From positions 1-39,659 of the forward strand of contig CALVKJ010000004.1 in NCBI GenBank assembly GCA_944332675.1: a stretch of 39,659 bases of DNA, read 5' to 3'. The first letter of the stretch is position 1; each line of letters opens with the position of its first letter. A model generated the notes under the pieces. That model was not told the DNA's origin. It saw only the letters and a list, made by a program, of their open reading frames with translations, and did not search any database. Of the stretch, positions 4,708 through 36,646 are shown piece after piece. The stretch is from an uncultured Bacilli bacterium. GTDB lineage: Bacteria > Bacillota_I > Bacilli_A > RF39 > UBA660. Made by a program: the position numbers and the translations under genes.

Positions 4708-5832
4708 TTAAGATATTAGATACGGATTATCTTGCGTTCCTATTCCCAAAATGTATTGTACATCAGAATTTAGATAAAAGGTAGGCCTTACTGCAAAATT
4801 ATTATTATAAAGACTATGATACACAACTCCGCTACTATTAATTGAATGTATTGTTGTGTCTTTAACCGGCTCACAACAATATCCAGTTATAGTCCATTCA
4901 CTTATTCCTAGATATAACCAATTATTATCTATATTAAGAGAATCACTATAAGAGTCAATAGTTAACGACCAGTTTTCTGGAACAGTAGCATATGTATAAT
5001 CACTAATATATATCAAACCTATTTTATCCTGATAAATTGAATTATAATTTTTTAATTCCTGATTAAACACTTCTTTAGTAGTTTTATAAACCACATAAGA
5101 AGTTCCTGAAAGATACCAATTAGCAGATGATATCATATTCATCCATTTTGCTCCAAAACTGTTTAAATATATATCATTTAAAGTAACAGTATTTAATGTA
5201 TTATTATCCCAACTACCAGTACCATTACTACTCCAATAATAATTTCCAATGCTTTCAGATTTTATTAGTTTTACTTGACCATCAAATACTCCTATTATCC
5301 TATATAGGTTATCTGCTGGACAAGTTGATTCATCTGAACCAAAACATACGTAGTTATTTGGATTGGCTCCTATATAACGATAGCTATTATCTTCTGCTTC
5401 TAATGTTCCGTATGTTCCCACTCCATCGTGGTAGTATAGTCCATTTTCTCCATCTTCTGTGTAAACATAATTTATTATATAATTAGCTAAAGTAATTGTT
5501 TTATCAAAATATACATAGCATTTATCACTAGTATTTGCTTGCATTACAACTCTATTAGTTTCACTATTCCAAGTTAGTGTTCCACCATTCTCACATCTCG
5601 ACAAAGTTTCATTAAATGTATATCCATCCTGTGGCCAACTCGTATCACTAGAAACTTGATATTCCCCACTATTTGCTTCAGTTTCATACATCATAGTAAG
5701 TGCATTAGTATTTATTATTTGCTTGCTTTTCTCAGAATAAATAACTTCACTACTTCTATTAAAATTTAAAATTAAAACTAATAAAAAGGCTATTGAAAGT
5801 ATTACACCAAATACAATTATCTTCTTACTCAT
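4708..5832 (-). CDS. Membrane-anchored surface protein: N-terminal TM, conserved 71-aa two-Cys module, C-terminal DUF6273-like domain
   Basis: Hydrophobic N-terminus; module shared with 35521..36150; YRYIGANPNNYVCF, LYRIIGVF, IGLIYISDY, AVRPTFYL, GTQDNPY motifs (family name from recall). Confidence 0.75.
   Translation of the reverse strand: MSKKIIVFGVILSIAFLLVLILNFNRSSEVIYSEKSKQIINTNALTMMYETEANSGEYQVSSDTSWPQDGYTFNETLSRCENGGTLTWNSETNRVVMQANTSDKCYVYFDKTITLANYIINYVYTEDGENGLYYHDGVGTYGTLEAEDNSYRYIGANPNNYVCFGSDESTCPADNLYRIIGVFDGQVKLIKSESIGNYYWSSNGTGSWDNNTLNTVTLNDIYLNSFGAKWMNMISSANWYLSGTSYVVYKTTKEVFNQELKNYNSIYQDKIGLIYISDYTYATVPENWSLTIDSYSDSLNIDNNWLYLGISEWTITGYCCEPVKDTTIHSINSSGVVYHSLYNNNFAVRPTFYLNSDVQYILGIGTQDNPYLIS
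5500..5712 (-). repeat. Copy 1 of a 213-bp coding module (copy 2 at 35809..36021)
   Basis: Ungapped alignment, 61/71 aa identical. Confidence 0.95.
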
Positions 5833-5851
5833 AAAAATATACTCTCCACTC

Positions 5852-5916
5852 TAAAACATATTGTTATATATACATTTTAAAACAATATGTTTTAAAAATC
5901 AATACAACAAATTGTT
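5852..5916. promoter_or_regulatory. Three AACA-N3-TGTT operator-like sites between divergent genes
   Basis: 5855-5865, 5881-5891 and 5906-5916; the first two form a perfect 14-bp inverted repeat TAAAACATATTGTT/AACAATATGTTTTA. Confidence 0.7.
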
Positions 5917-5947
5917 TTATTTTAGAATAATGTCTAGGTGATTCTAA

Positions 5948-6190
5948 ATGAGAATTAGAGAAATAAGAGAAGATAAAGATTTGACCCAATCACATATTGC
6001 CAAGATTTTAAATGTATCCCAAGTTGCATATAGTTTTTATGAAATAGGGAAAAGACAGCTCCCAATTGAGTTATTAATAAAACTAGCTAAATATTACAAT
6101 ACATCAACTGATTATTTATTAGAATTAACTGATGAAAGAAAACCTTACCCCAAATCTATAATAGAAAAAAACAAAAAAACAAGTAACTAA
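5948..6190 (+). CDS. XRE-family helix-turn-helix transcriptional regulator
   Basis: IREIREDKDLTQSHIAKILNVSQVAYSFYEIGKR...LAKYYNTSTDYLL; AGGTG RBS. Confidence 0.93.
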   Translation: MRIREIREDKDLTQSHIAKILNVSQVAYSFYEIGKRQLPIELLIKLAKYYNTSTDYLLELTDERKPYPKSIIEKNKKTSN

Positions 6191-6200
6191 GTACTTGAAT

Positions 6201-7079
6201 TTATAAAAATGGTAATGTCTTTCTTTTTACTCCACCGTTAACTTCATAACAACTATTGATAATTATAAATGCTTGAGGATCTATCTCTAATATCTTTTGT
6301 TTAAACAAATAATAATCTCGATTAGAAACTACACACATAATCATAAAGCCTCTTTTTTTCGAATATCCTCCCCGACTTGGAATACTTGTAAAACCAGTTT
6401 GAAAATCATTTAATATTAGCCTCTTTATTTTTCTTACCTTTTTTGTATAAATATAAAATACTTTACTATCAGATAAGCCAAACATTAATTTATCAATGAA
6501 GTATGTAGAACAAATAAGGATTATAAAGGAATAAACACCTTTAGTAAAACCAAAAACTAACATACTTGCTATAATAATTAAACTATTTGCAACAATCATC
6601 GCTTTAGATTCGCTAATTTTTAAATACTTATTTAATATCTGCATTATTATATCAGAACCCCCAGTAGAAAACCCAGTTCGATATATAAGTCCACTACTAA
6701 CACCATACATAATAATTGCAAATAATAGTATTAAATAAAAATCATCCCCCATAATATAACTATTTAAAAATTTTGCGATTGGCTCTGAAGCTGTAATCAT
6801 AACAGGATACATAACCGATCCTACTATATTTCGTTTTGTCATCTTCCAACCTAAAAATATTAAACTAACAATTAATAATATTCCATTAGTAATATAGATA
6901 AAAGCTGATGCTGACCAACCGAATAATCTTTGTACAACTATAGCAACACCACTAAATCCTGATACAACTAAATCATTGGGAATTAAAAACATATTAAAAC
7001 ATAGAGCATATAAAAATACTCCCAAAACTAGTGATATCCCATCAATTATAGCCTTTTTAGTATCAATATTACTTAACAT
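6201..7079 (-). CDS. YitT family membrane protein
   Basis: Multi-TM, GFSTGGSDII, C-terminal IDPQAFIII...EVNGG. Confidence 0.88.
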   Translation of the reverse strand: MLSNIDTKKAIIDGISLVLGVFLYALCFNMFLIPNDLVVSGFSGVAIVVQRLFGWSASAFIYITNGILLIVSLIFLGWKMTKRNIVGSVMYPVMITASEPIAKFLNSYIMGDDFYLILLFAIIMYGVSSGLIYRTGFSTGGSDIIMQILNKYLKISESKAMIVANSLIIIASMLVFGFTKGVYSFIILICSTYFIDKLMFGLSDSKVFYIYTKKVRKIKRLILNDFQTGFTSIPSRGGYSKKRGFMIMCVVSNRDYYLFKQKILEIDPQAFIIINSCYEVNGGVKRKTLPFL

Positions 7080-7173
7080 TCTATCACCTATTATAAATAT
7101 TATAAAACATCAAATAATTTTTAGCAATTATTATTAATTAAAAGCATATATTGTTTTGAGGTGAATATTAAAA

Positions 7174-7533
7174 ATGAATGGTCAATTTTATCAAAATCCA
7201 ACATTTCCAAGTAATAATTATACAACTCCACCAGGTAATATTTCCATAAACGAAGTAAATGCGCAAAATGTACCTAGAGAACAAAGTTATATTGAAAACA
7301 TATTAAGACTTAATAAAGGGCAAAAAGTAAAAGCATATGTATCTTATCCCGATAGTAGTGCTTGGCAAAATAAAGTATATGAAGGAATCATCGAAGAAGC
7401 CGGAAAAGATCACTTAATTATTCGTGATACGATGAATAATATTTGGTACTTAATACGTATTATCTATTTAAATTACGTTGAATTTTTTGATCCAATTGTA
7501 TATTCTCATACTTATTCTGAAAAGACATATTAA
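7174..7533 (+). CDS. gerQ: Spore coat protein GerQ
   Basis: EQSYIENILRLNKG and GIIEEAGKDHLII are GerQ signatures. Confidence 0.9.
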   Translation: MNGQFYQNPTFPSNNYTTPPGNISINEVNAQNVPREQSYIENILRLNKGQKVKAYVSYPDSSAWQNKVYEGIIEEAGKDHLIIRDTMNNIWYLIRIIYLNYVEFFDPIVYSHTYSEKTY

Positions 7534-7560
7534 AAGAATCGCAAAAAAACGATTCTTTTA
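7531..7560. terminator. Bidirectional intrinsic terminator
   Basis: TAAAAGAATCG-N8-CGATTCTTTTA perfect inverted repeat between convergent genes. Confidence 0.8.
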
Positions 7561-7568
7561 TTTATTAT

Positions 7569-8786
7569 CTATCTTGAACCAGTAATATAATTTTTAGATA
7601 TTTCTTCTTTCCGTTCTGATATAAATGCTAAAGTTTTAGCAAATGCTTCTTTATTACTTGTTATTGTTTTAGCATAAGTGCCTCTATCTCCATAAGGAGC
7701 AATTGGATTTCCTCCCATTACAGATAATTCTACTAATAATGTAACTGGCAAATAACTACGCATTAAATCACCACAACCTGTTATACTCGGTTCATCTAAA
7801 TAAGTTCTACCACCAGTTGCATAACCACAAGCTTCACCATAACAATTAGCTACTTCTTCATTTATTTTTTTATTTCTTTCGTAATTTTCATTATTAATAA
7901 ATTTATAAGGGCGATGATATACTACTCCACCAGTTCCATGATAAGTGATTAATCCCACAAAAGATTCACTTTCATGTAAACCAGATAACATATTAAATAA
8001 TGCTAAGTTTTCTGGTTCAAATTCAAAATGATTAGCATCTTTTCTCGGGCATCCAATCGGAGAAGGAATATTATTAGGTAAATTATTGTATCTTGCTCCT
8101 CCATAAGTTATTACTCCAGTTTGGGCATACATAGCTTCATTTTTGGGATTATCTGGGGTATTGGCATTTAAATCAACACCTGATCCATTAGCTGTCCAAT
8201 TAATCATTGATCCAGGTGGATAATGATAAGTATCCCAAAGTTTCTTAACACTTTCTTTTAGTTCATAATTATCATCACTTAGATCATCTGGTGTAACACT
8301 TGCAAACATCATTTGATGCATTTTTATTGATCTATCACTAGGATTTTCCCGAGTGTGGATATCATCTTGTTTAAAATTCCACCAGTAATCGTGGCAAATT
8401 TTTTCTATTTCCTCATCACTTGTACCATCGGGAATAACTTTTTTAATTGCAGTTGTATTAATCACGAATCCTTCCGGATTTTGCAAAGGAATAAAATGAG
8501 TAGTAAACTCTTCAGGATTAAAACTAGCAAATTTGCCTTCACCCCGAGCAATACTACTCATAAGTTGAGTTACAAAATCAACACTGATTAATTCATTACC
8601 ATGGGTTCCCCCCATTACAACTAAATGATTTGGTCCATCCCCAATTGTATAATGTTCTACCGGAAAATCACAACGCGTATAAACAAGAGGTTCTTGCTTA
8701 ATTACTCTAAAAATATTTCCTTCGTTATTTATTAATTCATTAATTCTTTCTTGATACTTTTGATAATCTAATAATTCATACCTCAT
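7569..8786 (-). CDS. M14 zinc carboxypeptidase-family peptidase (possibly peptidoglycan-peptide active)
   Basis: GGTHGNE (HxxE), NPEG, NGSGVDLN, TYHG, VEL motifs. Confidence 0.8.
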   Translation of the reverse strand: MRYELLDYQKYQERINELINNEGNIFRVIKQEPLVYTRCDFPVEHYTIGDGPNHLVVMGGTHGNELISVDFVTQLMSSIARGEGKFASFNPEEFTTHFIPLQNPEGFVINTTAIKKVIPDGTSDEEIEKICHDYWWNFKQDDIHTRENPSDRSIKMHQMMFASVTPDDLSDDNYELKESVKKLWDTYHYPPGSMINWTANGSGVDLNANTPDNPKNEAMYAQTGVITYGGARYNNLPNNIPSPIGCPRKDANHFEFEPENLALFNMLSGLHESESFVGLITYHGTGGVVYHRPYKFINNENYERNKKINEEVANCYGEACGYATGGRTYLDEPSITGCGDLMRSYLPVTLLVELSVMGGNPIAPYGDRGTYAKTITSNKEAFAKTLAFISERKEEISKNYITGSR

Positions 8787-8794
8787 ACATACCT

Positions 8795-9292
8795 CTAATA
8801 ATAATATTTAAAATTATTTTTTTCGTATCCCAGTTTAGTTGACCCTCCGTGCCCCGGATAAAGCACAATATCATCGGAATAATTACTAATCAAGTCTAAA
8901 CTTTTTTGCATATCTACATCACTACCTGTTGGTAAATCACATCTACCAATACTGTTTAAAAAGATAAAATCACCAACAAACATAACTTTTTCATCTTGAA
9001 AATAATAACTTACTGAATCACTACTATGGCCAGGAGTTTTTATTACTTCCAGTCCCATATCTAAAACATCTTTACTTTCCTTTATTTTAAAATAATCTTC
9101 CAATTCTCTTAGTGCTCCGATATGATCAAAATGGTGATGAGTAATTAAAATACCAACCACATTTTTACCTTGACAAGCATCTATTATTTTTTGTGCTTCA
9201 TCACCAGGATCTATAATAATTGTTTTATTATTTTTAGTAACAATATAGCAATTTTCTTCTAAAGAACCTACAACTAATCTTTCTATTTTCAT
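8795..9292 (-). CDS. Metallo-beta-lactamase-fold hydrolase (glyoxalase II-like)
   Basis: THHHFDHIG, TPGHS, GD, YPGHG. Confidence 0.9.
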   Translation of the reverse strand: MKIERLVVGSLEENCYIVTKNNKTIIIDPGDEAQKIIDACQGKNVVGILITHHHFDHIGALRELEDYFKIKESKDVLDMGLEVIKTPGHSSDSVSYYFQDEKVMFVGDFIFLNSIGRCDLPTGSDVDMQKSLDLISNYSDDIVLYPGHGGSTKLGYEKNNFKYYY

Positions 9293-9301
9293 AAACCCCA
9301 A

Positions 9302-11167
9302 TTAATAACAAGTATAATAATTACTAGAAAAAACTGTAGAATCAAAAACACTTATACTATCAGTAGTAATATTGCTACTATCGATTATCATATTTGTTCC
9401 ATCAGTTAAAGATAAAACATAATTATTATCTATCATATTAACTTTGCCAAAATACGCATTAGTATCAAGTTGCAATAATCCAGAATTAACTAAATCTTCT
9501 ATCGTAACACAAGTTACTTCATTACCTTGTAAAGATTGACTTGTAAAATACAAACTAGCAACATTAACAACTTCTTGACTTGTTAGCAAGAATTGTTCTT
9601 CGCTACTTCCACTAGATAGCAAATTCTCTAAACCCAATTTTTCAAAAATATCATTAATATTATTTATTATTGTATTTTGATCATTTACAGTTAAAGTATT
9701 TACATCTTTAGCATCATTAAATTTTTTTTCTGAAACTAAATCACTACCAATATTGCTAGAAAGATTTACATCTAAATTCAAACTAACACCATTAGCAACT
9801 AACGAAATAGTACCAACTGTATCTTTTTGTGTATCACTAACATTAGTTGTTGTAATATCTACATTCATACTTACTTCTGAATCATTTAAATCTGATTCAA
9901 AATCAAATGCAATGTTTTTGACGTTATCACTAGCATTACTAACACTTAAATTAAATGTATAACCAGTAACTTCAATAATACATTTAAAAGTATAATCTTT
10001 AGTATTATAAGTTATATCAAAAGTACCTTCTGTATTTTCATAATATAATCTTACATCATCACCATTAACTGTTACATCAATTACTTCTTCATTAATTGTT
10101 AGATCATAATTATCTTTACTAACTTCATCTAAACTAATTACTAAATCACTAGTTGTAAAATCAAAACTTTTTAAATCTCCACTAGGTATTTTTACTACAA
10201 CTTCTAAAGAAAAATCTGCTATTGTTGATGCATCAATAATTGGTGTAGAAATATTTAGTGTTTCTAAGAATGCCACCATATCAGCATATTCTTCAATTAA
10301 TTCATTTAATTTATTAGCAAACGCTTCTTTATTACTATCATCTACTCTATAAGTATAAATTGCAGTAAGCCCACTAATTTTAGTAGTAACATTAGTTTCT
10401 TCGATAGCAGTACCAAGATATTTTGCAAAATTTTTCAAAAAACTTTGCATATCCATTATTGTTTGTAACCCTGATGTATCTATACTTGCAAAAGGATTAC
10501 TTTCTAAACTACTATATAAAGCATCAGGATATAAATCCTCAGAAACTAAATACATATTTGCTTCATCTATATACATTTCAGCATTAAGTAAAGAATCATT
10601 TTCCTTAAGTAATTCTAAATTTAAATCCATTATTTCTTTTGTGCTAGAAAAACTAAAATCAAAATTAAATGTAGTATCATTAAACATAGATAATTCTTCC
10701 ATATTTGTATTTATTTGAAAATCCCCACTAGTAACACTATCAGTTTCGGGATCATAATTATAACCCGCAAACATATTATCAACAAAACTTGAAAATTCTT
10801 CAATCTTTTCTTCAATATACTTTGGAGCAGTAAAATTATAATTAATATAAACTACTGTAGCTATTATAGCTAAAACAACAACACCAACTATAACACCAAT
10901 AATAATAAATAATTTCTTTTTACTCTTAGGTTTATCAGTATTATTTTCTCCTCCACCAACAGCTGCAGCATTATTTAAATCACTTGATATAGAATTATTA
11001 TTTTCTGCAATAAAGTTATTATTTACCCCCATTTCATTATTTGCAGTAGTTTCTCCTACTCCAACATCATTTAAATTGTTATTTGCAATACTAGTTTCAT
11101 TATTAGAGCTAGGTATTGCATTTTCATTACTAACATTACTGTTAGCATCAAAAAAATCATTTTTCAT
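9302..11167 (-). CDS. Single-pass membrane protein with Asn-rich N-terminus and large acidic extracellular region; function unknown
   Basis: 621-aa ORF with RBS; KSKKK followed by a long hydrophobic helix. Confidence 0.7.
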   Translation of the reverse strand: MKNDFFDANSNVSNENAIPSSNNETSIANNNLNDVGVGETTANNEMGVNNNFIAENNNSISSDLNNAAAVGGGENNTDKPKSKKKLFIIIGVIVGVVVLAIIATVVYINYNFTAPKYIEEKIEEFSSFVDNMFAGYNYDPETDSVTSGDFQINTNMEELSMFNDTTFNFDFSFSSTKEIMDLNLELLKENDSLLNAEMYIDEANMYLVSEDLYPDALYSSLESNPFASIDTSGLQTIMDMQSFLKNFAKYLGTAIEETNVTTKISGLTAIYTYRVDDSNKEAFANKLNELIEEYADMVAFLETLNISTPIIDASTIADFSLEVVVKIPSGDLKSFDFTTSDLVISLDEVSKDNYDLTINEEVIDVTVNGDDVRLYYENTEGTFDITYNTKDYTFKCIIEVTGYTFNLSVSNASDNVKNIAFDFESDLNDSEVSMNVDITTTNVSDTQKDTVGTISLVANGVSLNLDVNLSSNIGSDLVSEKKFNDAKDVNTLTVNDQNTIINNINDIFEKLGLENLLSSGSSEEQFLLTSQEVVNVASLYFTSQSLQGNEVTCVTIEDLVNSGLLQLDTNAYFGKVNMIDNNYVLSLTDGTNMIIDSSNITTDSISVFDSTVFSSNYYTCY

Positions 11168-11234
11168 AAATCATACCCTTCCTATTTAATTATACTATGA
11201 TTATAACATTTATTTCGACAATTTTCCAACATAG

Positions 11235-11260
11235 AAAAAACTGATACTTAATATCAGTTT
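11235..11260 (-). terminator. Intrinsic terminator after the M23 gene
   Basis: AAACTGATA-N5-TATCAGTTT followed by a U-tract on the minus strand. Confidence 0.65.
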
Positions 11261-12500
11261 AATCAAACCATTGAGTTCTTGAATAAAACCAAGATCCTTT
11301 ACCAGGAAATCCTGGAGGTTCTATTAAATTAGCTGTATATTTAGCCCAAGTTGTATAAGCTCCAACAGATACTCCAAAATGTAGGTGAGCACCAGTAGTA
11401 CAAGTATCATATCCGCCATTCTTCTTAGCTGTTGAATAACCACCAGACAAGGCAATAACATCATTAACAGTAACAGTATCCCCTACACTAACATACATTT
11501 CTAACAAATGGGCATATTGGGTAGTATAAACTTCACCATTTACTACTGTTTGAATATATATTTGATTTCCCCCACAAGAGCTACGACTTACAGTTTTAAT
11601 TACCTTTCCAGATGCTGCTGGATAAACTTCAGTTCCTTCAGAAACTCCAATATCTATACCACTATGGTAACTACTTTGTCCAGGAACACTTCGCCATCCG
11701 AATAAACTAGTAATACGACCTTTAGTAACAGGCTTTAACCAACCATAATTATTAATATACCATTCATAATCAGAATCACTCAAACGTGCATAACAAGCAC
11801 TAATAGTTTCTGTTTCGGTACAACCCATATCCTCATACATTTTTATAGTATTTTCCATAAGTTCTATTTCCCCATCAAGATCCATAGAAATATCAGAAAA
11901 TTGGATAATACTTGCATCAATTTCTTCTAATTGTCTTTGATATTCGGCAATATTTGCATTAAGTTCTTCTTCATACTTTATTAACTCTACTTGTTTTTGT
12001 TCATTTTCTTCAATTAAATCTTCCAACTCTACTAATTTTTCTTGATTATAGTTAGATAACATTTCAATGGCATCACTACGCATTATAAGTTCTGTCATAC
12101 TACTAGAATCTGTAATAAATTCCATATATGAATTATTACCTTGTAATATTTGATAATATGCCATCAAATCTTGAGTTTGTTGATCTAATTCAGCAATTTT
12201 TTCATTTGATTCTTCAATACTTTTCTTAGCCTCTTCAACATTTATTTTAGTTTCTTCAATTTTGGCATAAGCATCACTTATTGCTTTGTTTTTCGCTTCT
12301 TTTTCCGCTTCTGAAACTTCTTTTTCGTGTTCCGCATCAGCTTTTTCTTGATATAAATTTTCAAGTTCCTGACGCATTCCCGCTAAAGTATCAGTATTAC
12401 TTGCTGCTTTAACATACATCGGTTCTAAAATATATAAAGCCAATATTAAGAATACAAATATATATCTAATAAAATATTCACTTAACTTCTTTATATTCAC
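11259..12500 (-). CDS. FtsEX-associated coiled-coil M23 peptidoglycan endopeptidase (EnvC/PcsB-like architecture)
   Basis: Signal peptide, long coiled coil, HSGID and HLHF zinc motifs; directly downstream of ftsX. Confidence 0.88.
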   Translation of the reverse strand: MNIKKLSEYFIRYIFVFLILALYILEPMYVKAASNTDTLAGMRQELENLYQEKADAEHEKEVSEAEKEAKNKAISDAYAKIEETKINVEEAKKSIEESNEKIAELDQQTQDLMAYYQILQGNNSYMEFITDSSSMTELIMRSDAIEMLSNYNQEKLVELEDLIEENEQKQVELIKYEEELNANIAEYQRQLEEIDASIIQFSDISMDLDGEIELMENTIKMYEDMGCTETETISACYARLSDSDYEWYINNYGWLKPVTKGRITSLFGWRSVPGQSSYHSGIDIGVSEGTEVYPAASGKVIKTVSRSSCGGNQIYIQTVVNGEVYTTQYAHLLEMYVSVGDTVTVNDVIALSGGYSTAKKNGGYDTCTTGAHLHFGVSVGAYTTWAKYTANLIEPPGFPGKGSWFYSRTQWFD

Positions 12501-12516
12501 GTTTACTCCCTTCTTA

Positions 12517-24518: not shown

Positions 24519-24531
24519 AAGTCCTCCTTAT

Positions 24532-25907: not shown

Positions 25908-25931
25908 TAAATATACCTCCTTTAAAAACAA

Positions 25932-27198: not shown

Positions 27199-27214
27199 TG
27201 TTTAATCCTCCTTT

Positions 27215-27694: not shown

Positions 27695-27695
27695 A

Positions 27696-27989: not shown

Positions 27990-27990
27990 T

Positions 27991-28048: not shown

Positions 28049-28053
28049 CAAGT

Positions 28054-28082
28054 ATTATAACAAATATATGTTCTAAATTCAA
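28054..28082 (-). promoter_or_regulatory. sigmaA promoter of the rpsF operon
   Basis: TTGAAT-17 bp-TATAAT with extended -10 TG. Confidence 0.8.
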
Positions 28083-28095
28083 TAAAAATACATAC

Positions 28096-28118
28096 AAAAA
28101 AGAGCAATTTCTTGCTCT
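28096..28118 (-). terminator. Intrinsic terminator after the acyltransferase gene
   Basis: AGAGCAA-GAAA-TTGCTCT plus U-tract. Confidence 0.8.
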
Positions 28119-29268
28119 ATGCTACTTTTTTTCTAGTACTCTTCTTTTCTTCTTCTTTTGGTTTCCTAAATATTGGTGTAATTACATAATCATCAATACA
28201 CATTACTATAAACGAAGCACAAGTTGTAAATAAAATATTAAATACGATACTTGCATGATAACTCATTTCTGGGAATAAATAAGCTAGTAAGAAGACAAAT
28301 ACTATATGAATTGCATAATAGTAAAGCGATAACTTTCCTAAAAATGCACAAACACCACTTTTATTATAAAGTACTGAAATATAATCTTTATTTGTAAGAA
28401 GTACTACACAAAATACAAATAGTATTATTCCATTAGTAAATTCACTCCACGTAATTCCCGCATAGATAGTATATAGGAAAAATATAGCAATACCAATATG
28501 CAGTAAACTAAATGCCATCATCATTACTTCACTGAATTTTTTCTTTCTAAAGTATTCAACTACATAATACATAAGCATTCCTAAACACATACCAGCCATA
28601 ACTCTAGCAAGTCCATTTGGAAATCCTATAGCATTAACCATTGTTCTATCCCAGCCAATTTCCGTTAATCCTACACTAGCATATGTAAGTATAACAAATA
28701 CTGGAGCAAAGAATCCAGTAAAGAAATCTTCACTTTTAGAAACAATATAATATAAAATTAAACTAGCAATAATTAATGCAGAAATATACCATAACGGACC
28801 ATTCCAAAGTTGGGAAACACCTAAAGTCGTATCAAATGTAATTGACTTTAACTCTAAAAGTCCCACAGCTCCAATCTGCGAAATCCCTAAGAACTCCCAA
28901 ATAGAATCCATAAATACTCCGAATATTTGTGTTATTTTTGTACCATTTATGGCATTACGAACAATAAATGCCAGTAGCACACCGATAAATAGTGCTGGAT
29001 ATAATGCCTTAAATCTTCCCCCAGCATATTTCCAAGCTTGCTTTGATGGAGCTTCATCCTTAGTATTGCCTTTTGCTTTTTGTTTTTTATAATGCGACAT
29101 TAAAAAATATCCTGATAAAAACATAAAAAACGCTAAAACTCTGCCACCAGTAAATATTAAGTTTTCACCAGTTTCACGCCAAACAAAGGTATTTAAATGA
29201 CCTAAAGCAATAGCAACAGTAAAAATAAAACGCCATAATTCAATTGTTGTTATTTTCGAATTTTTCAT
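28117..29268 (-). CDS. Acyltransferase-3 (OafA-like) membrane protein
   Basis: IELWRFI...H, FFMFLSGY, RFKALYP, LWY, LGKLSLYYYAIH; many TM helices. Confidence 0.85.
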   Translation of the reverse strand: MKNSKITTIELWRFIFTVAIALGHLNTFVWRETGENLIFTGGRVLAFFMFLSGYFLMSHYKKQKAKGNTKDEAPSKQAWKYAGGRFKALYPALFIGVLLAFIVRNAINGTKITQIFGVFMDSIWEFLGISQIGAVGLLELKSITFDTTLGVSQLWNGPLWYISALIIASLILYYIVSKSEDFFTGFFAPVFVILTYASVGLTEIGWDRTMVNAIGFPNGLARVMAGMCLGMLMYYVVEYFRKKKFSEVMMMAFSLLHIGIAIFFLYTIYAGITWSEFTNGIILFVFCVVLLTNKDYISVLYNKSGVCAFLGKLSLYYYAIHIVFVFLLAYLFPEMSYHASIVFNILFTTCASFIVMCIDDYVITPIFRKPKEEEKKSTRKKVA

Positions 29269-29354
29269 AATCAATCCCTTTCTAGTATCTCTACTGTATC
29301 AATAGTATAATAATTATCAAATTTTGTCAATTGTAGAAAAAAAAGAAAAAGGAT

Positions 29355-30128
29355 TTATTCCTTTTCCTTGCTTGTTTTAGATTTCTTACTACTCTTTTTA
29401 TTTGCAATACTCTTATTAGTTTCTTTCTTTTTTACATTCTTTTTTTCTTGTACTTCTACTTCTTTAGTTTCTATAATTTTTTTATCCTCACTTACGTTAC
29501 TGTTGGCCTCTTCAACTACCATTGGATTTAAATCTATTACCTTAGTACCAGCTACAACATCGTGAAGTCCTCTAAAATCTTTACGAAGTACAACCATTAA
29601 CATAATTATCGTTGTTACAAGCATTTGCAAATAACTAACAACCATTGACAAAGTATAAAAACCATTTTCCTTGAAAATATATACTCCTACAATCAATATT
29701 ATAGAAAATACAATATTATTAAGAATTAATGAACGTAAGAAGTAATTGCCGATATTTAACTCTTTATCTTCCTTATTAGCAACAACTCTTATTTTCATAA
29801 GTTTTTTACCAAGAGTTTGACCTTTTAAAGCCCATTGTAATACCACAAAGTATAAGATCATTCCCACAACTGTAATACTACTACTTACAACTTTATACTT
29901 ACTAACTTCATAATTTAAAGCTATTGTCTTTTCTTTATATTCTTCTGTATCAGTATCAATTTCTCCATCTTGCGCTTTTTGTACTAATTCTGTATATTCA
30001 TTATAACTATCCATATATTCATCTATATATGGATTAATAAAACTTTGACTAACTATAAAAGACATCAGTAATGTAACAATTAAAACATCTATTACATAAG
30101 CCATTACTCTTTTTAAAACTAAATCCAT
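29355..30128 (-). CDS. RDD family membrane protein with Lys-rich tail
   Basis: KRVMAYVID, GQTLGKKLMKIRV, GLHDVVAGTKV. Confidence 0.9.
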   Translation of the reverse strand: MDLVLKRVMAYVIDVLIVTLLMSFIVSQSFINPYIDEYMDSYNEYTELVQKAQDGEIDTDTEEYKEKTIALNYEVSKYKVVSSSITVVGMILYFVVLQWALKGQTLGKKLMKIRVVANKEDKELNIGNYFLRSLILNNIVFSIILIVGVYIFKENGFYTLSMVVSYLQMLVTTIIMLMVVLRKDFRGLHDVVAGTKVIDLNPMVVEEANSNVSEDKKIIETKEVEVQEKKNVKKKETNKSIANKKSSKKSKTSKEKE

Positions 30129-30136
30129 AAATACAC

Positions 30137-30781
30137 CTAATCCCTACTACGACCAAATAATGATAACAAATGAATAAATAAATTAATAAAATCTAAATAT
30201 AAATCAAGTGCTCCATAAATAGCTAAGTTTTCTTTTGGTAATCCGCTATTTTCTAACATTTTAATCTTTTGGACATCATATGCCGTAATACCTATGAATA
30301 CTAAGACACATATTATAGAAACGATCATTGATACCATTGAATTATTTAAGAATATATTAATTAACGCAACAACTAAAACTGCAATTAAACCAAAGAACAA
30401 ATAAGTTCCTAGTTTTGTAAGGTCAACGTTAGTTGTATAACCAATTAAAGCCATAACAGCAAAGATAACTGCTGCAACTAAGAATATCAACATTATTGAG
30501 TCTATTGCATAATAAACAAATATTGATGCAAAAGTAAGGCCACTTACAAATGAATAAAGTAAGAAACATACCTTTGCTGTTGCAGGTTTCATTTTCATTA
30601 CCCTTGCAGATAATACTATAACTAGTACTAACTCAACTATAACAAAAATCCAATATCCCATTCCTCCATAAATATTTTCTAACATTACTTCATTATTAGC
30701 AACAAAATAACCAGTTAGAAATGTAATAAGTAAGCCAAAACACATCCATAAAAATGTTTTACTTATCAAATTATCCTTCAT
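30137..30781 (-). CDS. Bax inhibitor-1/YccA family membrane protein
   Basis: 7 TM, AYDVQKIK, ALDLYLDFINLF. Confidence 0.92.
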   Translation of the reverse strand: MKDNLISKTFLWMCFGLLITFLTGYFVANNEVMLENIYGGMGYWIFVIVELVLVIVLSARVMKMKPATAKVCFLLYSFVSGLTFASIFVYYAIDSIMLIFLVAAVIFAVMALIGYTTNVDLTKLGTYLFFGLIAVLVVALINIFLNNSMVSMIVSIICVLVFIGITAYDVQKIKMLENSGLPKENLAIYGALDLYLDFINLFIHLLSLFGRSRD

Positions 30782-30800
30782 CTAATCCTCCTTTTATAAT

Positions 30801-31901
30801 TTATACATTAAAGCGGAAATAACATATATCTCCATCTTTAATTATATACTCTTTTCCTTCAATTCGCAACTTTCCCGCTTCTTTGACGTTTTTTTCACTA
30901 CCTAGTTCTTTTAAATCATCAAAACTCATTACCTCAGCTTTGATAAATCCGCGCATCATATCACTATGAATTATTCCGGCACATTCTGGAGCTTTCATAC
31001 CTTGCTTAAATGTCCAAGCACGAACTTCATCAGAACCAGCTGTAAAAAATGTTGCTAGTCCCAATAAATTATATGTTGCAAATATTAATTTATCCAAACC
31101 ACTATTAGTTATACCAACACTTGCCAAAAATTCATCTCGTTCTTCATTTTCAAGTCCCGCTAAATCAGCTTCCAACTTAGCGCACATTACAATTACACCA
31201 GCGCCTTCAGCTTCCGCATAATTTTTAAGCTTCAAAGAATATTCATTATCTCCAACAACTATTGCTTCTTCATCAACATTTGCTACATATATTATTGGTT
31301 TTATTGTAAGTAAATTAAAGTTTTTTAAAATACTTAGAGAATCTTCATCAAAAGACAATCTTCGTAAAGGAATATTATTTTCCAAATTAGTTTTACATTT
31401 TTTCAATACTTCTACTTCAGCTTGCATCGCTTTATCTTTAGTAGCTTCAGCCTTTTTTTCAATTTTACCTAATCTATTATTTACTACATCTAAATCCGCA
31501 AGTACTAATTCTATATTAATAATTTCTATATCACTTACAGGATCTGTCTTACCGGTAACGTGTGTTATGTTAGCATCATCAAAACATCTAACAACTTCCA
31601 CTATTGCATCAACTTCTCTTATATGTGATAAAAATTTATTACCTAACCCCTCACCAGTTGATGCTCCTTTTACTAATCCTGCAATATCCGTAAACTCAAA
31701 TGTTGTAGGAACTATACTTTTAGGTTTATATAATTCTGCTAGATAGTCCACTCTCGTATCTGGTACAAATACCACTCCGACATTTGGTTCAATGGTTGCA
31801 AAAGGATAATTCGCCGCCAGAATATTTTGTTTAGTTATCGCATTAAAAAGGGTTGATTTACCAACATTGGGTAACCCCACTATCCCTGCTTTTAAACTCA
31901 T
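30801..31901 (-). CDS. ychF: Ribosome-binding ATPase YchF
   Basis: GLPNVGKST, ANYPFATIEPN, DIAGLV, TGS domain ending FRFNV. Confidence 0.97.
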   Translation of the reverse strand: MSLKAGIVGLPNVGKSTLFNAITKQNILAANYPFATIEPNVGVVFVPDTRVDYLAELYKPKSIVPTTFEFTDIAGLVKGASTGEGLGNKFLSHIREVDAIVEVVRCFDDANITHVTGKTDPVSDIEIINIELVLADLDVVNNRLGKIEKKAEATKDKAMQAEVEVLKKCKTNLENNIPLRRLSFDEDSLSILKNFNLLTIKPIIYVANVDEEAIVVGDNEYSLKLKNYAEAEGAGVIVMCAKLEADLAGLENEERDEFLASVGITNSGLDKLIFATYNLLGLATFFTAGSDEVRAWTFKQGMKAPECAGIIHSDMMRGFIKAEVMSFDDLKELGSEKNVKEAGKLRIEGKEYIIKDGDICYFRFNV

Positions 31902-31916
31902 TTTAATCCCCCATTT

Positions 31917-33458
31917 CTATAAAGCAACACTAGATCCTACTCCTAAAGGAATACCAGTTATATACCAAACAATTATTATTACTAAGAAAACTGCAAGACT
32001 AATAACTGCAAAAGGCATTTGATATTTTACTGCTTCTAACATTGTTACAGGTTTATTACTTTGATTATAATTTTCCATAAATGCTAAATAAACAATAAAG
32101 TATACAAACACTGGTGTAAGTCCAATTGCAACGGATCCCCCTAAACGATAAACTAATTGCGCAAATTCTGGACTAATGCCAGCTTCCATTAAAGTAGGAA
32201 CTGTTGCTGATAATATCGACCAACTATTTATAGCATTAGGTAAGAACAGTGATGAAATAACTGTAGCAATAAACAATAGTATTAAAAGTGGCAATCCTCC
32301 AAAATTAGAGTTAATTATCAAATTAGCAAACGCTGCAGTAATAACATTACCAATATTAGATTCTTTAAAGATATTAATAAATATCGAAACAGCAAATATC
32401 ATTACAAGTATTTTACCAATACCATTTAATGAATGCCCTAAAGCATCAATAAATTCTTTATTATTATTTATTGTTTTAGCACCAATTCCATAAGCTAGCC
32501 CTAATATAACAAATAACACAGCTACAACAAAGACAAAACCATTACTAAAAAATGAATCATAACTAAATAACTTATCAATATATAAAGTTTGACTATAATC
32601 TAGTAAATTACCTGAAAAAGGAAGTCCAGGAATAATATTATAAATAAATATTAACAAATATATAAGTCCTGCTCCTAAAGAAAATATTAATCCCCGCATT
32701 TTTTTCTTAGTTAAAACTAATTCTTCTTCGACATCTTCTTCTGGGAAATCATACTTAGGTACTTTTTTAGCAATATAATTTTCACTAATATTAGTAATAA
32801 CTACACTCATTACAATTATTAAAACTAACATAACAAGAAGATAACTAAATTGACCAATTGCGTAATCTCCAACTATTATGTGAGCATTAGTTAAAGTCAA
32901 TGTAATTAAACTAGAATCGACACTAGTTATAAAAAAACTTATTCCACTACCACAAGTTAATGCTGCAAAAGATGTAATAATACCTATTATTGGACTTCGC
33001 TTTCCATAAAGAAACAACAAAGCACTAAGAGGAATCAATACCACATAAGGTAGATCCCCAACTATACTAGCAATTATGCAAATAAGAACCAACACAAAGG
33101 TAACAGTTGTTTTCTTAGCTTTTTTCGTAAGCAGGATTATAAGTGTTTTTAAAAATCCACTTTTAACCATTATCCCAATACCAATAAGAATAATAATTAA
33201 ATTTGATAAAACCGCTAAATTAGCAAAATTAGCAACAGTAGATGTAAATATATATTTTAAACCACTTAAACTAAATAGGGATTTAACAGCTTCTGTAGTT
33301 ACTTCATAATCTCCAGTAATACTTGACACTTTACTATAAGTTGCTTGTACATCAAAAAAACTTAATATTCCACTTAAAATAATTACTACAAAACAAAGTA
33401 TTAGTAGCATCATCACCGGATGTAAACCAATTCTTTCCTTAACTCGAAGTTTTTTCAT
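31917..33458 (-). CDS. AbgT-family transporter
   Basis: LHPV N-terminus, VKSLFSLSG, YVVLIPL, ISPEFAQLVYRLG, GIPLG. Confidence 0.8.
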   Translation of the reverse strand: MKKLRVKERIGLHPVMMLLILCFVVIILSGILSFFDVQATYSKVSSITGDYEVTTEAVKSLFSLSGLKYIFTSTVANFANLAVLSNLIIILIGIGIMVKSGFLKTLIILLTKKAKKTTVTFVLVLICIIASIVGDLPYVVLIPLSALLFLYGKRSPIIGIITSFAALTCGSGISFFITSVDSSLITLTLTNAHIIVGDYAIGQFSYLLVMLVLIIVMSVVITNISENYIAKKVPKYDFPEEDVEEELVLTKKKMRGLIFSLGAGLIYLLIFIYNIIPGLPFSGNLLDYSQTLYIDKLFSYDSFFSNGFVFVVAVLFVILGLAYGIGAKTINNNKEFIDALGHSLNGIGKILVMIFAVSIFINIFKESNIGNVITAAFANLIINSNFGGLPLLILLFIATVISSLFLPNAINSWSILSATVPTLMEAGISPEFAQLVYRLGGSVAIGLTPVFVYFIVYLAFMENYNQSNKPVTMLEAVKYQMPFAVISLAVFLVIIIVWYITGIPLGVGSSVAL

Positions 33459-33645
33459 TTTTTATCACCTTTTTAAGTTTACGCATAAACTCTAAGCGGT
33501 CCATCATTATTTCTCGACCACAATTGTTACATTTAATTTTTATATCGGCACCATTCCTAGTAATTGTCCACAAATTTGTGCCACATGCATGAGGCTTTTT
33601 CATAATAACCTCATCTGCCAAATTAAACTCAACATTATTATTCAT
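33439..33645 (-). CDS. DUF951 family protein
   Basis: MKKPHACG...W...GADIKIKCNNCGR. Confidence 0.92.
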   Translation of the reverse strand: MNNNVEFNLADEVIMKKPHACGTNLWTITRNGADIKIKCNNCGREIMMDRLEFMRKLKKVIKNEKTSS

Positions 33646-34523
33646 TATTCATCCTCGATATCTATATGCATTTTTGCTAAAATATCTTCTAGTTCATTAA
33701 CCCCATCAAAATATACTTCTATTTTATTCTTATGTACTCTTACCTTAGTATTGAGCGCATCCATAATTATATTTTCAAACATTCTATATTTCGTATCATA
33801 ATTACTTTTACTTTTAACTTTAGTTACTTGTTTTTCTTCCTGACTTAGTTTTTCTAAATCATGAACACTCAAATTATCAGTTATTACTTTTTTAGCTAAT
33901 AGAATTGCTTTATTTTCATCATCTATTTTACTTATAACTCTAGCGTGCGACATAGACAAATTTTTCTTTTCCACTAATTTTTTAACTTCATCAGGTAATT
34001 TAAGTAACCCTAAAATATTGGTAACATAAGTTCTACTCTTACCAAATTTATTTGCAAACTCTTCTTGCGTATATCCCCTTAATTTAATTATATTACTAAT
34101 AGATGTTGCTTCATCTATTGGATTTAAATCTTCTCTTTGAATATTTTCTACCAAAGCAATTTCCATCATTTCTTGATCATCAAAGTCTTTAATTATTGCT
34201 GGTATCTTTTTTAGTCCTGCTATTTTAGCAGCCTTAGTTCTTCGCTCCCCTGCAACAAGTTCATATCCTTTGATACTTTTCTTAACAATAATGGGTTGCA
34301 CTACACCATATTCTTTAATAGATTTTGCAAGTTCATTTAAAGATTCAATATCAAAAGTTTTCCTAGGTTGATACGGATTACTTCTAATATCATCAATATT
34401 AATCTCCGTTACATTTTTTTCATTTTCTTCAACAATATCTTTTTCAAAATTATCAAAATCAATTACTGTATTTGAAAATAATTGTTCAAGTCCTTTCCCT
34501 AAAGCTTTCTTCTTAGTTTCCAT
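33645..34523 (-). CDS. parB: Chromosome partitioning protein ParB/Spo0J
   Basis: LGKGL, NPYQPR, AGERR, ENIQREDL, HTH. Confidence 0.96.
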   Translation of the reverse strand: METKKKALGKGLEQLFSNTVIDFDNFEKDIVEENEKNVTEINIDDIRSNPYQPRKTFDIESLNELAKSIKEYGVVQPIIVKKSIKGYELVAGERRTKAAKIAGLKKIPAIIKDFDDQEMMEIALVENIQREDLNPIDEATSISNIIKLRGYTQEEFANKFGKSRTYVTNILGLLKLPDEVKKLVEKKNLSMSHARVISKIDDENKAILLAKKVITDNLSVHDLEKLSQEEKQVTKVKSKSNYDTKYRMFENIIMDALNTKVRVHKNKIEVYFDGVNELEDILAKMHIDIEDE

Positions 34524-35298
34524 CGCGACTTATCACTTCCTTTGCCAAGTTATGATATGCTTCAGTTGCTCTACTTGTAGGATCATATTCATTGATTGGT
34601 TTTCCATGTGATGGTGCTTCAACTAATCTAACAAGTCTTGGAATAATTGTATTAAATACTTTATCTTTAAAGTATTTTCTTATTTCTTCAATTACTTCAA
34701 GTCCTATATTAGTTCTACCATCAAGCATTGTTAAAAGTACACCTTCAATTCTTAAATCTGGATTCATACTAGATTGAACCATAATTATTGAATTTAAGAG
34801 TTGCGTAATTCCTTCAAGAGCAAAAAATTCACATTGCACCGGAATAATTACACTATCACTTGCCACCAAAGCATTCATTGTTCCTAAACCTAGTGATGGT
34901 TGACAATCAATTATTATATAATCATAATTATCTCTAATTTCATCTAACTTTAACTTAAGTTGCATATTTTGTTGAAAAGTTTTATCTTCAAGCATCATTT
35001 TAACAAATTCAACATCAACACCAGCAAGATTAATTGTTGCAGGTATAATGCTTAAATTATGAAACTTAGTCTTCTTAATAGCTTTTTTAACTTCACATTT
35101 GCCTGTTATTAGTTCATAAATATCATTCTTAAAATCATTAGAGTTTAACCCAAGTCCAGTTGTAGCATTACTTTGGGGATCCATATCAATAAGTAACACA
35201 CGTTTCCCAAGTTGCCCTAATGCTGCCGATAAATTTATACTAGTAGTTGTTTTACCAACTCCTCCTTTTTGATTAACAAGTGATATTATTTTTGCCAT
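34513..35298 (-). CDS. parA: Chromosome partitioning ATPase ParA/Soj
   Basis: NQKGGVGKTT, DMDPQ, EAPSHG. Confidence 0.96.
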   Translation of the reverse strand: MAKIISLVNQKGGVGKTTTSINLSAALGQLGKRVLLIDMDPQSNATTGLGLNSNDFKNDIYELITGKCEVKKAIKKTKFHNLSIIPATINLAGVDVEFVKMMLEDKTFQQNMQLKLKLDEIRDNYDYIIIDCQPSLGLGTMNALVASDSVIIPVQCEFFALEGITQLLNSIIMVQSSMNPDLRIEGVLLTMLDGRTNIGLEVIEEIRKYFKDKVFNTIIPRLVRLVEAPSHGKPINEYDPTSRATEAYHNLAKEVISRDGN

Positions 35299-35388
35299 AC
35301 TACACCTCTATAACTTTTGTACTCTTCTATTTTATCATACATTCACTTCATTTTGAAATGTTTTTAAGAATTATTTTTAAATTAAAAG

Positions 35389-35411
35389 AAAAAAGCCTTA
35401 GAAATAAGGCT
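35389..35411 (-). terminator. Intrinsic terminator downstream of the 35521..36150 gene
   Basis: AGCCTTA-TTTC-TAAGGCT plus U-tract. Confidence 0.75.
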
Positions 35412-35520
35412 AATAAATATTGTTTACAAATAAATTATGATAATTTGCTTTCATCATTAATTATATAAACATTTTTTACACGGTCACACTTTTTCAAAAA
35501 AGTTATAAAACAAAATTTAT

Positions 35521-36150
35521 TTAACACATAACAGAATTGGCAGTAAAATAAGAATTAAAAACATCAGATTTGTTACCCAAAGTATCAACTACATACAATG
35601 AATAGTTTATTCTTTCTCCTCTTGAAGCACAAATTACTACACTTGGATTATAATCATTTAGTCCCACCTTAGTATAGCTACTTTCTCCATTGATAGATAA
35701 GTAGTACTCAGCTATACTTGTTTCCACATTCAATGATACACTAGATATTGTTACATAGCCATCCCCATTATTACCTACATCTGCATCAATTATTTGCAAA
35801 TTAAGATTTTTATCAAAATACACATAACACTTATCAGATACATTGGCTTGCATAATTACCCCATTTGTTTCACTATTCCAAGTTAAAATACTTCCATTTT
35901 CACATCTCGACAAAGTTTCATTGAAGATATAACCATCCTGTGGCCACGTGGTATCACTAGATACTTGATATTCTCCACTTTGATAACCTGTTTCATACAT
36001 CATTGTAAGTGCATTAGTATTTAAAATGTTTTTATTGTTTTCTTCACTACTTATAATAAGCTTTTCATTATTATCGCTTATAAATACATATAAACAAGTT
36101 GTTAAAACTAATAAAATACTTATACTAATAATTAAATATTTCTTTTTCAT
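35521..36150 (-). CDS. Membrane-anchored surface protein: TM, conserved 71-aa module, C-terminal Ig/FN3-like beta domain
   Basis: Module shared with 4708..5832; IAEYYLSING...YSLYVVDTLGNKS pattern typical of small beta-sandwich domains. Confidence 0.75.
   Translation of the reverse strand: MKKKYLIISISILLVLTTCLYVFISDNNEKLIISSEENNKNILNTNALTMMYETGYQSGEYQVSSDTTWPQDGYIFNETLSRCENGSILTWNSETNGVIMQANVSDKCYVYFDKNLNLQIIDADVGNNGDGYVTISSVSLNVETSIAEYYLSINGESSYTKVGLNDYNPSVVICASRGERINYSLYVVDTLGNKSDVFNSYFTANSVMC
35809..36021 (-). repeat. Copy 2 of the 213-bp coding module
   Basis: Aligns without gaps to 5500..5712. Confidence 0.95.
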
Positions 36151-36299
36151 ATTCACCAATCCTTTAGACTATTCTACCAAATTTAACCACACTATCTTTG
36201 TCGAATCTTGTCTACTATTAATATAATATCACAAATGACGCTATTAGGCTATATTAAATTGAATAATTGTTAAGCAAAATATGAGTTAGGTGATACATT

Positions 36300-36646
36300 T
36301 TGATAAAAGAAACACTTTATTTTCACGATGATGAATACTATTATGAAATAGTAAGAACAAATATTAAAAATATCGATTAGAAAACAAATTAACTCAACAA
36401 AATCTAGCAGATCTTTCTGGTGTATCTCGTAAATATATTTGTGATATAGAAAACAAAAATAGAAACAAACACATAACAATAGCTATTCTTGGCAGGATAG
36501 CTGATGCCCTAAATCTAAACATAGTTAAATTTTTTATAAAAGAAGATGAATTAAGAGTTGAAATTAAAAATGTAATAGAAACATTTAATAAAAATAAAGA
36601 AAAAGAAGTAGTAAATATAGAACAAAAGTCAAGCAAGTTTGACTGA
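36300..36646 (+). pseudogene. XRE-family HTH regulator with a frameshift at A5 (36366-36370); missed by the ORF track
   Basis: AGGTG RBS, TTG start MIKETLYFHDDEYYYEIVRTNIK, then in the shifted frame YRLENKLTQQNLADLSGVSRKYICDIEN...LGRIADALNLNIVKFF. Confidence 0.8.

Follow-up and report, generated by a model that had tools for sequence, protein, structure and literature searches.

Two surface-protein genes on a contig of an uncultured Bacilli bacterium raise the question of why proteins that share an almost identical internal segment should end in unrelated domains, each gene facing a regulator of its own. The window analyzed here is the whole 39,659-nucleotide stretch of contig CALVKJ010000004.1 (assembly GCA_944332675.1; RF39, UBA660). 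The two genes, P1 and P2, lie on its minus strand, divergent from the XRE-type genes XRE1 and XRE2. A preliminary description, made from the letters of the window, had proposed a polymorphic family of adhesins or pilus accessory proteins with a constant module, exchanged C-terminal domains, and one repressor per copy. The explanation favored here, which we consider fairly probable, is that P1 and P2 belong to a lineage-specific, recombination-shuffled repertoire of surface binding proteins, most of them with a private repressor; we infer the binding, the regulation, and the role of the module.

Two cassettes with one layout

The features of the two loci are as follows.

4708-5832, minus strand: P1, family member, an open reading frame (ORF) of 374 aa
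5500-5712, minus strand: constant two-Cys module of P1, 71 aa (aa 41-111)
4711-5490, minus strand: P1 tip (aa 115-374), DUF6273 fold by predicted structure, a probable C-type-lectin-fold domain
5852-5919, no strand: three 17-nt palindromes, TAAAACAnnnTGTTTTA, candidate XRE1 operators in the P1-XRE1 intergenic region
5948-6190, plus strand: XRE1, HTH_3 regulator divergent from P1, 80 aa
35521-36159, minus strand: P2, family member with a short FN3-like tip, an ORF of 212 aa from TTG
35809-36021, minus strand: constant module of P2 (aa 47-117)
35524-35799, minus strand: P2 tip (aa 121-212), FN3-like beta-sandwich in the predicted structure
36300-36646, plus strand: XRE2, HTH_3 regulator gene divergent from P2, frameshifted (HTH frame 36368-36646)

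The ORFs and the HTH_3 matches bear out the arrangement described earlier, a minus-strand protein gene divergent from an XRE gene at both loci, with the qualification that XRE2 is frameshifted. P1 consists of a short Lys-rich N-terminus, a transmembrane (TM) helix, a disordered linker, the constant module, and a lectin-type tip; its module was placed by hmmsearch, at aa 47-117 of a 380-aa stop-to-stop frame. The AlphaFold2 (AF2) model of P1, built with alignments (mean predicted local distance difference test score, pLDDT, 85.5), has a helix at aa 4-24, disorder at 24-42, a six-stranded module at 45-111, and the tip at 115-374. The P2 model, built in the same way (pLDDT 78.6), has a helix at aa 2-31, disorder at 31-47, module strands at 51-117, and tip strands at 123-206. 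For P2, an ATG at 36150 behind AAGGA gives a protein of 209 aa and appears the likelier start over the TTG.

The constant module

The module, NTNALTMMYE...CYVYFDK, aligns without gaps over 71 aa in P1 and P2, with 61/71 positions identical and both Cys residues kept; re-measurement gave the same values as the preliminary description. The abrupt end of similarity noted there was also recovered, as BLASTP aligns the proteins at 2e-45 and only noise beyond YFDK. The many silent DNA changes reported in the module correspond to a proportion of synonymous differences (pS) of 0.57 against a nonsynonymous proportion (pN) of 0.10. Among 11 paralogues of the window's own assembly (55 pairs), the module medians are pN 0.20, pS 0.54, and dN/dS 0.225, and module DNA identity is 70-88%. 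Synonymous sites are thus near saturation while pN is low, and the protein sequence of the module is therefore under selection. By these sequence measures, the module is old and owes its retention to selection acting on the protein and not to gene conversion in recent time.

Conservation along the protein is uneven. Across 60 homologues, 27 module columns are invariant, both Cys included. The column entropy of the module (0.63 bits over 60 lectin-type members) is the lowest of the protein, compared with 2.09 bits for the TM helix, 2.15 for the linker, 1.59 for tip aa 115-305, 2.73 for aa 306-346, and 1.44 for aa 347-374. In the AF2 models of both P1 and P2, the module is all-beta and six-stranded (pLDDT about 70-84). 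Sequence searches did not recognize it as a characterized domain: Pfam and NCBIfam returned only a chance-level TrsH match (E 0.024, 14.7 bits against a cut-off of 150), a 60-sequence profile found only a chance match among PDB sequences (E 0.34), and an atlas search with the module alone gave a best score of 0.76, under the lead level. In the structure searches with whole P1 and P2, every listed match covers the tips, and none speaks on the module fold. A complex prediction for two module copies (score 0.01, mark 0.42) bears neither way on self-association.

A large family in one lineage

More than the two copies of the window exist. The assembly that contains it (1.05 Mb, 69 contigs, 28.8% G+C) was searched with a two-sequence module profile over 11,613 ORFs, which identified 12 full-length module genes, two partial ones (contigs C43 and C1), and one marginal match; contig C22 carries a 679-aa frame (670 aa from the start codon) with diverged tandem modules. 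With an 11-sequence profile, each of the 24 other sampled congeneric species (24/24) has 4-25 matches, and 0/16 genomes from 16 other families match. A wider draw within the same family gave matches in 21/119 other genomes and in 7/73 genera, the window's own included. Outside the genus, module scores are much weaker, and one genome there has 28 matches. Public protein collections contain 800 matches among 812 candidates at E<=1e-3, and a public protein library yields 988 representatives at 50% identity at E<=1e-3, 585 of them at E<=1e-10. In nearly all of the 150 representatives listed, the module spans roughly aa 40-115; those that deviate are short or have lost part of the N-terminus. Almost none of the module-bearing public proteins is named. 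These searches show a large module family that is confined, in the genomes sampled, to one family of small-genome gut Bacilli.

Two members depart from the usual plan. The 670-aa protein on C22 (C22:12338-14350; L015:1030-3042), encoded beside recA, has a TM helix, a weak fn3 match, two tandem modules by profile (more by eye), and an ALK/LTK glycine-rich domain (PF12810, 2.5e-39). Module matches in open frames of ~650-690 aa occur in other genomes of the genus, which suggests that this type of protein is conserved across it; it may represent the ancestral, non-shuffled form of the module. On C1, a 172-aa gene (C1:22725-23243; L095:10726-11244) retains only the first half of the module and is followed by a gene for a 206-aa TM protein, directly upstream of pilC and a prepilin peptidase gene, an arrangement that is not conserved in the genus.

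Tips and their folds

The P1 tip had been called DUF6273-like, which holds for the fold and not for the sequence profile. Its predicted structure has the same fold as a solved DUF6273 domain, and the tip is DUF6273-like at that modeled level; P1 has no Pfam match to PF19789 (DUF6273) even at E<=10. Weak PF19789 matches are found in 8/60 homologues (best E 1e-4), and the family member C6b reaches E 0.0079 (16.5 bits, below the cut-off of 23.5). The P2 tip, described before as Ig-like, is probably an FN3-like beta-sandwich, as its predicted structure supports. Most tips of the family appear to be DUF6273 C-type-lectin-fold domains, and the others small FN3/Ig-like or other domains. As far as the available parts of two reports describe it, DUF6273 is a C-type-lectin-like domain of phage receptor-binding proteins, and its C-terminal part is the variable region of diversity-generating retroelements (DGRs) (PMC10743442, PMC11792537). 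The most variable stretch of the P1 tip, aa 306-346, is the equivalent of that region in related domains. Read from these predicted folds, the tips would bind glycans or other surface ligands and so act as adhesins.

A DGR-like cassette is present in the same genome. Contig C34 (1-2440) encodes a reverse transcriptase (RT) homologue (45% to the RT of a relative, tblastn 3e-72) together with an A-rich template at 72-141, which codes AFNVNNTGYVNNNNVNNTNAVRP; a second copy of the template begins contig C39. The template matches the 3' end of the gene for a 510-aa protein (C1:58866-60398) whose lectin domain is very like that of P1, and the mismatches ahead of a 3-nt indel fall mostly at template adenines. 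Against the 70-nt template, P1 has 31/70 matches, and 27/39 mismatches are at non-adenine positions; over P1 and five other module genes of the assembly, the best ungapped match is 26-31/70. By these alignments, the window copies are not current DGR targets. In three congeners (G014, G005, and G009; loci L047, L048, and L050), an RT gene occupies the parA-proximal site together with the gene for a lectin protein of ~380 aa that has no module, and a template/variable repeat pair is present (72-80% identity across ~90 nt). A module-bearing gene of G005 has 85% DNA identity over 864 nt with this lectin-protein target and a weak template match.

Exchange of tips at the module

Sequence comparisons show that alleles and paralogues trade tips through crossovers that lie inside the module or at its 3' end. 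The C-termini are not fixed at orthologous loci. In the metagenome locus L078, parA is 99% and the AAA gene 93% identical (aa) to the window genes, and the flanks (window 33600-35381 and 37995-39563) match at 90% DNA identity. The stretch from the module to XRE2 (window 35812-36627) matches at 79%. In place of window 35382-35811, L078 has 1190 nt that code for the lectin tip of a 419-aa protein, and homology breaks at 35812, the last codon of the module (3' end), so that the P2 tip is replaced exactly where the module ends.

Mosaics of leaders and tails occur more widely. A cluster of 22 proteins with P2-type leaders (>=70% identical) contains five tail classes. Over the first ~65 aa, which comprise the leader, the linker, and the first third of the module, protein P0012 has no differences from P2, and P0017 and P0090 have two each; all three depart from P2 within the module's second part, and their tails are unrelated. 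Conversely, one lectin tail occurs behind at least four different leaders. Among 348 protein pairs with leaders at least 90% identical, the tails are unrelated in 19. In these 19 pairs, module positions 1-28 are 96% identical and positions 29-73 only 80%, compared with 99% and 98% in the other 329; the drop inside the module therefore places the crossovers within it. The 238 sampled tails of at least 60 aa form 22 single-linkage BLAST classes, the largest of which (196/238, including the lectin-type tails) is an upper bound into which some unlike tails were pulled. These mosaics rest on predicted proteins from assemblies, and a residual chance is left that they represent chimeric assembly at the repeated module. 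Together, the additional copies, the L078 swap, and the mosaics uphold the earlier proposal of a polymorphic family in which the module is constant and the C-terminal tips are swapped.

Private regulators

Both window regulators match the HTH_3 profile PF01381 above its gathering cut-off of 23, XRE1 with 54.5 bits (1.2e-14) and the XRE2 frame 36368-36646 with 37.1 bits (3.2e-9). The partners of seven other copies in the assembly also match PF01381. BLASTP yields no alignment between XRE1 and XRE2, in agreement with the divergence reported before. In the window's own genome, a divergent HTH_3 gene stands beside 8/14 family genes. Other copies have a tandem HTH_3 gene (one) or a divergent Arc-type ribbon-helix-helix gene (one), and the copy on C8 faces a 64-aa ORF that is ribbon-helix-helix by eye and has no Pfam match. 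With 33 HTH_3 matches among about 1148 genes as the background, the binomial probability of at least eight of 14 is 1.2e-9, and of at least nine 2e-11; XRE adjacency is thus enriched, as had been expected. In the congener G003, 7/8 module genes examined have a divergent HTH gene.

Candidate operators differ between loci. The three TAAAACAnnnTGTTTTA palindromes, detected by a repeat search and a window scan against shuffles, are spaced ~25 nt apart. Five TAAAACAnnnTGTTTTA matches with at most one mismatch occur in the 1.05-Mb assembly, three of them in the P1-XRE1 gap; none is near another cassette, and neither of the two other sites lies beside a family gene. Inverted repeats of 11-21 nt, with differing sequences, are present in all six other divergent HTH-paired intergenic regions and are weak evidence in AT-rich DNA. 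Promoter and terminator scans at locus 1 remained at shuffle level (15 promoter-like sites, 13.1 expected). Just upstream of the surface gene, three to four cassettes of the assembly, namely C4b (window 36160-36299), C6a, C35, and partly C6c, share the element CTTGTCGAAnnnTGTCTACTA, so some duplications carried the promoter region along.

XRE2 exists in two allelic states. The HTH frame 36368-36646 of the window lacks a start codon, whereas a second frame begins with a TTG at 36300 and reaches its stop at 36375-36377. Two congeners have intact orthologues, 83-84 aa long, that cover both frames. The break is a -1 frameshift in an A5 run (36366-36370), which is A6 or A7 in the closest orthologues and is interrupted (AAGAAA) in more distant ones. 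Contigs from two runs of two studies (X7, X8) have an extra A that restores the frame, and two others (X1, X3) have A5 as in the window. Both alleles therefore circulate among the sequenced runs, in a comparison made on contigs, not reads, to which variation inside one population is not visible. Given the locus-private, operator-like palindromes and this A5/A6 polymorphism, it is plausible that each repressor switches the cassette to which it belongs.

Gain and loss of cassettes

Comparison of loci shows family genes to be single insertions between housekeeping genes, which some species have and others lack. Locus 1 is flanked by a CofD/YvcK-like gene (3528-4490) and a YitT gene (6201-7079). 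In other species of the genus, yvcK and yitT directly abut in 17/19 spanning loci (a twentieth, outside this count, is cut off by a contig end). One of the remaining two has an unrelated 189-aa ORF. The other, in G024 (yvcK 93% identical), retains a 91%-identical XRE1 beside a 58-aa stub of the surface gene, left by a deletion from the module to just beyond the stop. The borders of the cassette 1 insertion have no clear target duplication and no terminal repeats. A GerQ-type spore coat gene (window 7174-7533; PF09671, 9.5e-29) lies nearby in this genome of ~1-1.5 Mb, and a gene of this type adjoins yitT in 18/19 spanning loci of relatives.

The earlier statement that both loci lie between housekeeping genes applies to locus 1; locus 2 has parA on one side and an IS605-type tnpB element on the other. 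Across the 20 stretches compared, the DNA upstream of parA is hypervariable. A module gene of 208-568 aa is present in 5/20, lectin tails run off the contig in two more, and module-less lectin proteins (376-382 aa) occur in 5/20, one of them alongside a module gene; the remaining stretches contain unrelated genes or are cut. At 35 metagenome loci with an XRE2 relative, a module gene stands beside the regulator in 22 (386-590 aa if complete), and 9/35 have larger proteins without a detected module, four of which have a P1-like match. The runs that contain the locus are mostly labeled chicken gut; the RNA runs identified share only 5-7% of the sampled sequence words.

The element next to XRE2 is outside the cassette system.

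36647-37994, minus strand: IS605-type element, tnpB at 36762-37910 (382 aa), OrfB_IS605/Cas12f1-like_TNB (Pfam)

It carries only tnpB and begins one base past the XRE2 stop, and the corresponding stretch (window 36628-37994) has no counterpart in L078. Contigs of four runs show loose ends at 36647 that lead to other insertion sites, with much higher summed depth, and the element is therefore multicopy. A joint of 36730 to 37925 in contigs of three runs probably derives from other copies of the element. Beyond it, window 38031-39224 encodes an AAA_14 + DUF4143 ATPase that matches the PADLOC candidate defense family PDC-S01 (6.4e-146); in other genomes, this variable site again contains relatives of the ATPase (38-47% and 93% identity).

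Proposed explanation

P1, P2, and their relatives are best read as single-pass surface proteins in an N-in/C-out orientation, a topology suggested by the Lys-rich start and the single helix. The common plan would be a Lys-rich tail, a TM helix, a flexible linker of ~20 aa, the 71-aa two-Cys module as a membrane-proximal stalk or docking domain, and an exchangeable tip. With tips that bind glycans or other surface ligands, the family would form a variable repertoire of adhesins or ligand-binding proteins, and the conserved DNA of the module may double as a homology patch for tip exchange. Each regulator would bind private palindromes in the shared intergenic region and repress its own cassette; a copy whose regulator is lost, as with the frameshifted allele of XRE2, would be locked on.

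A bolder form of this explanation appears unlikely. Here, the cassettes would be repressor-locked units, with most of the 10-25 binding proteins silent and few exposed. Repressor mutation would switch them heritably, module crossovers would give new specificities, and cassettes would spread without a recombinase of their own. If true, the family would correspond, in bacteria, to an antigenic-variation repertoire that is combinatorial and sparsely expressed.

Several observations weigh against the repertoire of privately repressed binding proteins. The assembly is only 67.8% complete, and the single-linkage tail classes from 238 sampled proteins undercount tail types. The 79% identity of the L078 stretch from leader to XRE2, against 90% in the flanks, indicates that whole genes are replaced besides tips alone. 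Plain decay, and not a switch, may account for the frameshift in XRE2, because the A6 tract is short and is interrupted in distant orthologues. Three of the 14 copies in the assembly have no small regulator, and in G066, a congener of G003 in which some module copies lie 2-3 kb apart on one contig, a divergent HTH gene accompanies only 2/12 module genes; the HTH profile applied to both genomes was built from the assembly's own XREs and may miss others. Finally, for the DUF6273 domain of the Thomasclavelia ramosa IgA peptidase, the available part of the source reports no significant effect on catalytic efficiency and assigns no ligand (PMC12402451), and "lectin" therefore names a fold here and not a shown activity.

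Alternative explanations

Four other explanations are each less likely than the one proposed. The cassettes could be phage-derived, a repressor with a moron-like surface gene that serves phage exclusion or as a receptor decoy and not adhesion. This is improbable. The best PHROGs matches of XRE1 and XRE2 are phage repressors or regulators, the tip fold is one used by phage receptor-binding proteins, locus 2 adjoins the PDC-S01 candidate defense gene, and the three spaced TAAAACAnnnTGTTTTA palindromes resemble a CI/Cro-type operator array. However, the flanks of the 14 loci in the assembly contain no integrase, structural, or lysis genes, and the family is chromosomal and restricted to one bacterial family. 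PADLOC has no match for P1 or P2, and its XRE matches are generic HTH models.

That the module has no function of its own, being kept alike by gene conversion as a pure recombination handle, is more doubtful still. It would account for crossovers that map inside the module and for contigs that break there. The identity of only 70-88% between paralogous modules, the excess of pS over pN, and the invariant columns indicate selection on the protein instead. The earlier suggestion that the module is a handle for shuffling tips is thus supported in that leaders and tips are joined at the module, and contradicted by purifying selection for a module that is a handle only.

Pilus accessory proteins or non-canonical minor pilins, in which the TM helix and module load variable tips onto a type IV pilus, are a highly improbable alternative, and this part of the preliminary description is not sustained. 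Genes for PilC (T2SSF) and a prepilin peptidase are present in the genome, with the decayed half-module gene directly upstream, and modular pilins with grafted lectin modules exist, as described in the accessible portion of PMC9934059. According to that portion, a class 3 signal peptide has a short leader ending in Gly or Ala, a hydrophobic tract, and usually Glu5. The N-termini of P1 and P2 (MSKKIIVFGV... and MKKKYLIISI...) have neither a Gly/Ala-ending leader nor Glu5, and Pfam and NCBIfam scans assign no pilin family to either protein. Their AF2 models show a helix, a disordered linker of 17-19 aa, and a separate beta domain, not a pilin lollipop with its head. Linkage to pilus genes is not conserved: among the matches listed, a module gene is near pilC/pilD in 2/30 pilC-bearing genomes (G000, with the partial copy, and G014).

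Diversification of the window's lectin tips by the genome's DGR, not by recombination, is scarcely credible: an RT homologue and a template that matches a P1-like lectin domain are present, the G005 module gene has a weak template match, and the most variable tip stretch is the variable-region equivalent, but P1 and the five other module genes match the template poorly, with most mismatches off its adenines.

Comparison with known systems

The genomes of this lineage measure ~1-1.5 Mb yet carry 4-25 copies (28 in one relative); with so many copies in small genomes, the family must matter for gut life. For a lineage that only metagenomes have revealed, it supplies candidate determinants of adhesion, and a set of small candidate repressor/operator pairs that are directly testable. 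The undescribed conserved module could seed a new protein family entry, and the proteins are a naturally occurring scaffold with a defined joint, where tips of the lectin-fold, FN3-like, and other types are swapped. Literature on DUF6273 and on DGR/C-type-lectin surface families yielded no description of the module family, which is not proof of absence.

The closest analogies in overall design are the Cwp/CWB2 proteins of Clostridioides difficile and the pneumococcal choline-binding proteins, which are paralogues with a constant anchoring module and a variable functional domain. As in the present family, many paralogues share one envelope-adjacent module and differ in the outward domain. Here, by contrast, a TM helix at the N-terminus provides the anchor, and no known wall-binding domain matches the module. 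The genes are scattered single-gene insertions with tips swapped at the module, and most have a private regulator.

The Vlp, Vsa, and Vsp proteins of Mycoplasma are variable surface lipoproteins whose expression can be switched by homopolymer tracts. The resemblance lies in a small genome, a sizeable share of genes devoted to surface proteins, and conserved N-terminal with variable C-terminal parts. In contrast to them, P1 and P2 have no lipobox (by eye), the tips are folded domains and not repeats, and no invertible promoter or site-specific recombinase was seen. The sole tract change found here is in a repressor gene, XRE2, and is not conserved.

Polymorphic toxins such as CdiA-CT and Rhs proteins have a constant N-terminal part and C-termini exchanged by recombination. 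The present family likewise has a constant N-terminal part, a sharp demarcation motif (CYVYFD), and unrelated, recombining C-termini. Unlike these toxins, it carries lectin-fold or FN3-like tips and no toxin domain, and in place of a downstream immunity gene it has housekeeping neighbors and a divergent DNA-binding partner.

Two systems share parts with the family. In the available portions of the sources, DUF6273 (PF19789) is exemplified by the T. ramosa IgA peptidase's N-terminal domain (9qa6; PMC12402451) and by phage tentaclins and DGR targets (PMC10743442, PMC11792537). Compared with the examples given there, the domain is carried here on a TM helix and module, where those examples have a sortase-anchored peptidase or a phage tail, and it is the principal variable tip in a family of bacterial surface proteins. 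The Streptococcus sanguinis pilins PilB and PilC, as far as the same accessible portion of PMC9934059 describes them, also have a membrane-inserted N-terminal helix that carries a grafted lectin module for adhesion; the proteins described here differ in having no class 3 signal peptide, pilin head, or conserved linkage to pilus genes. Families with a constant anchor and a variable domain, and polymorphic proteins shuffled by recombination, are already well known. What is new, to judge from the sequences compared, is the module itself, a TM-helix carrier for DUF6273 tips, a defined crossover joint, and the frequent presence of a probable private repressor.

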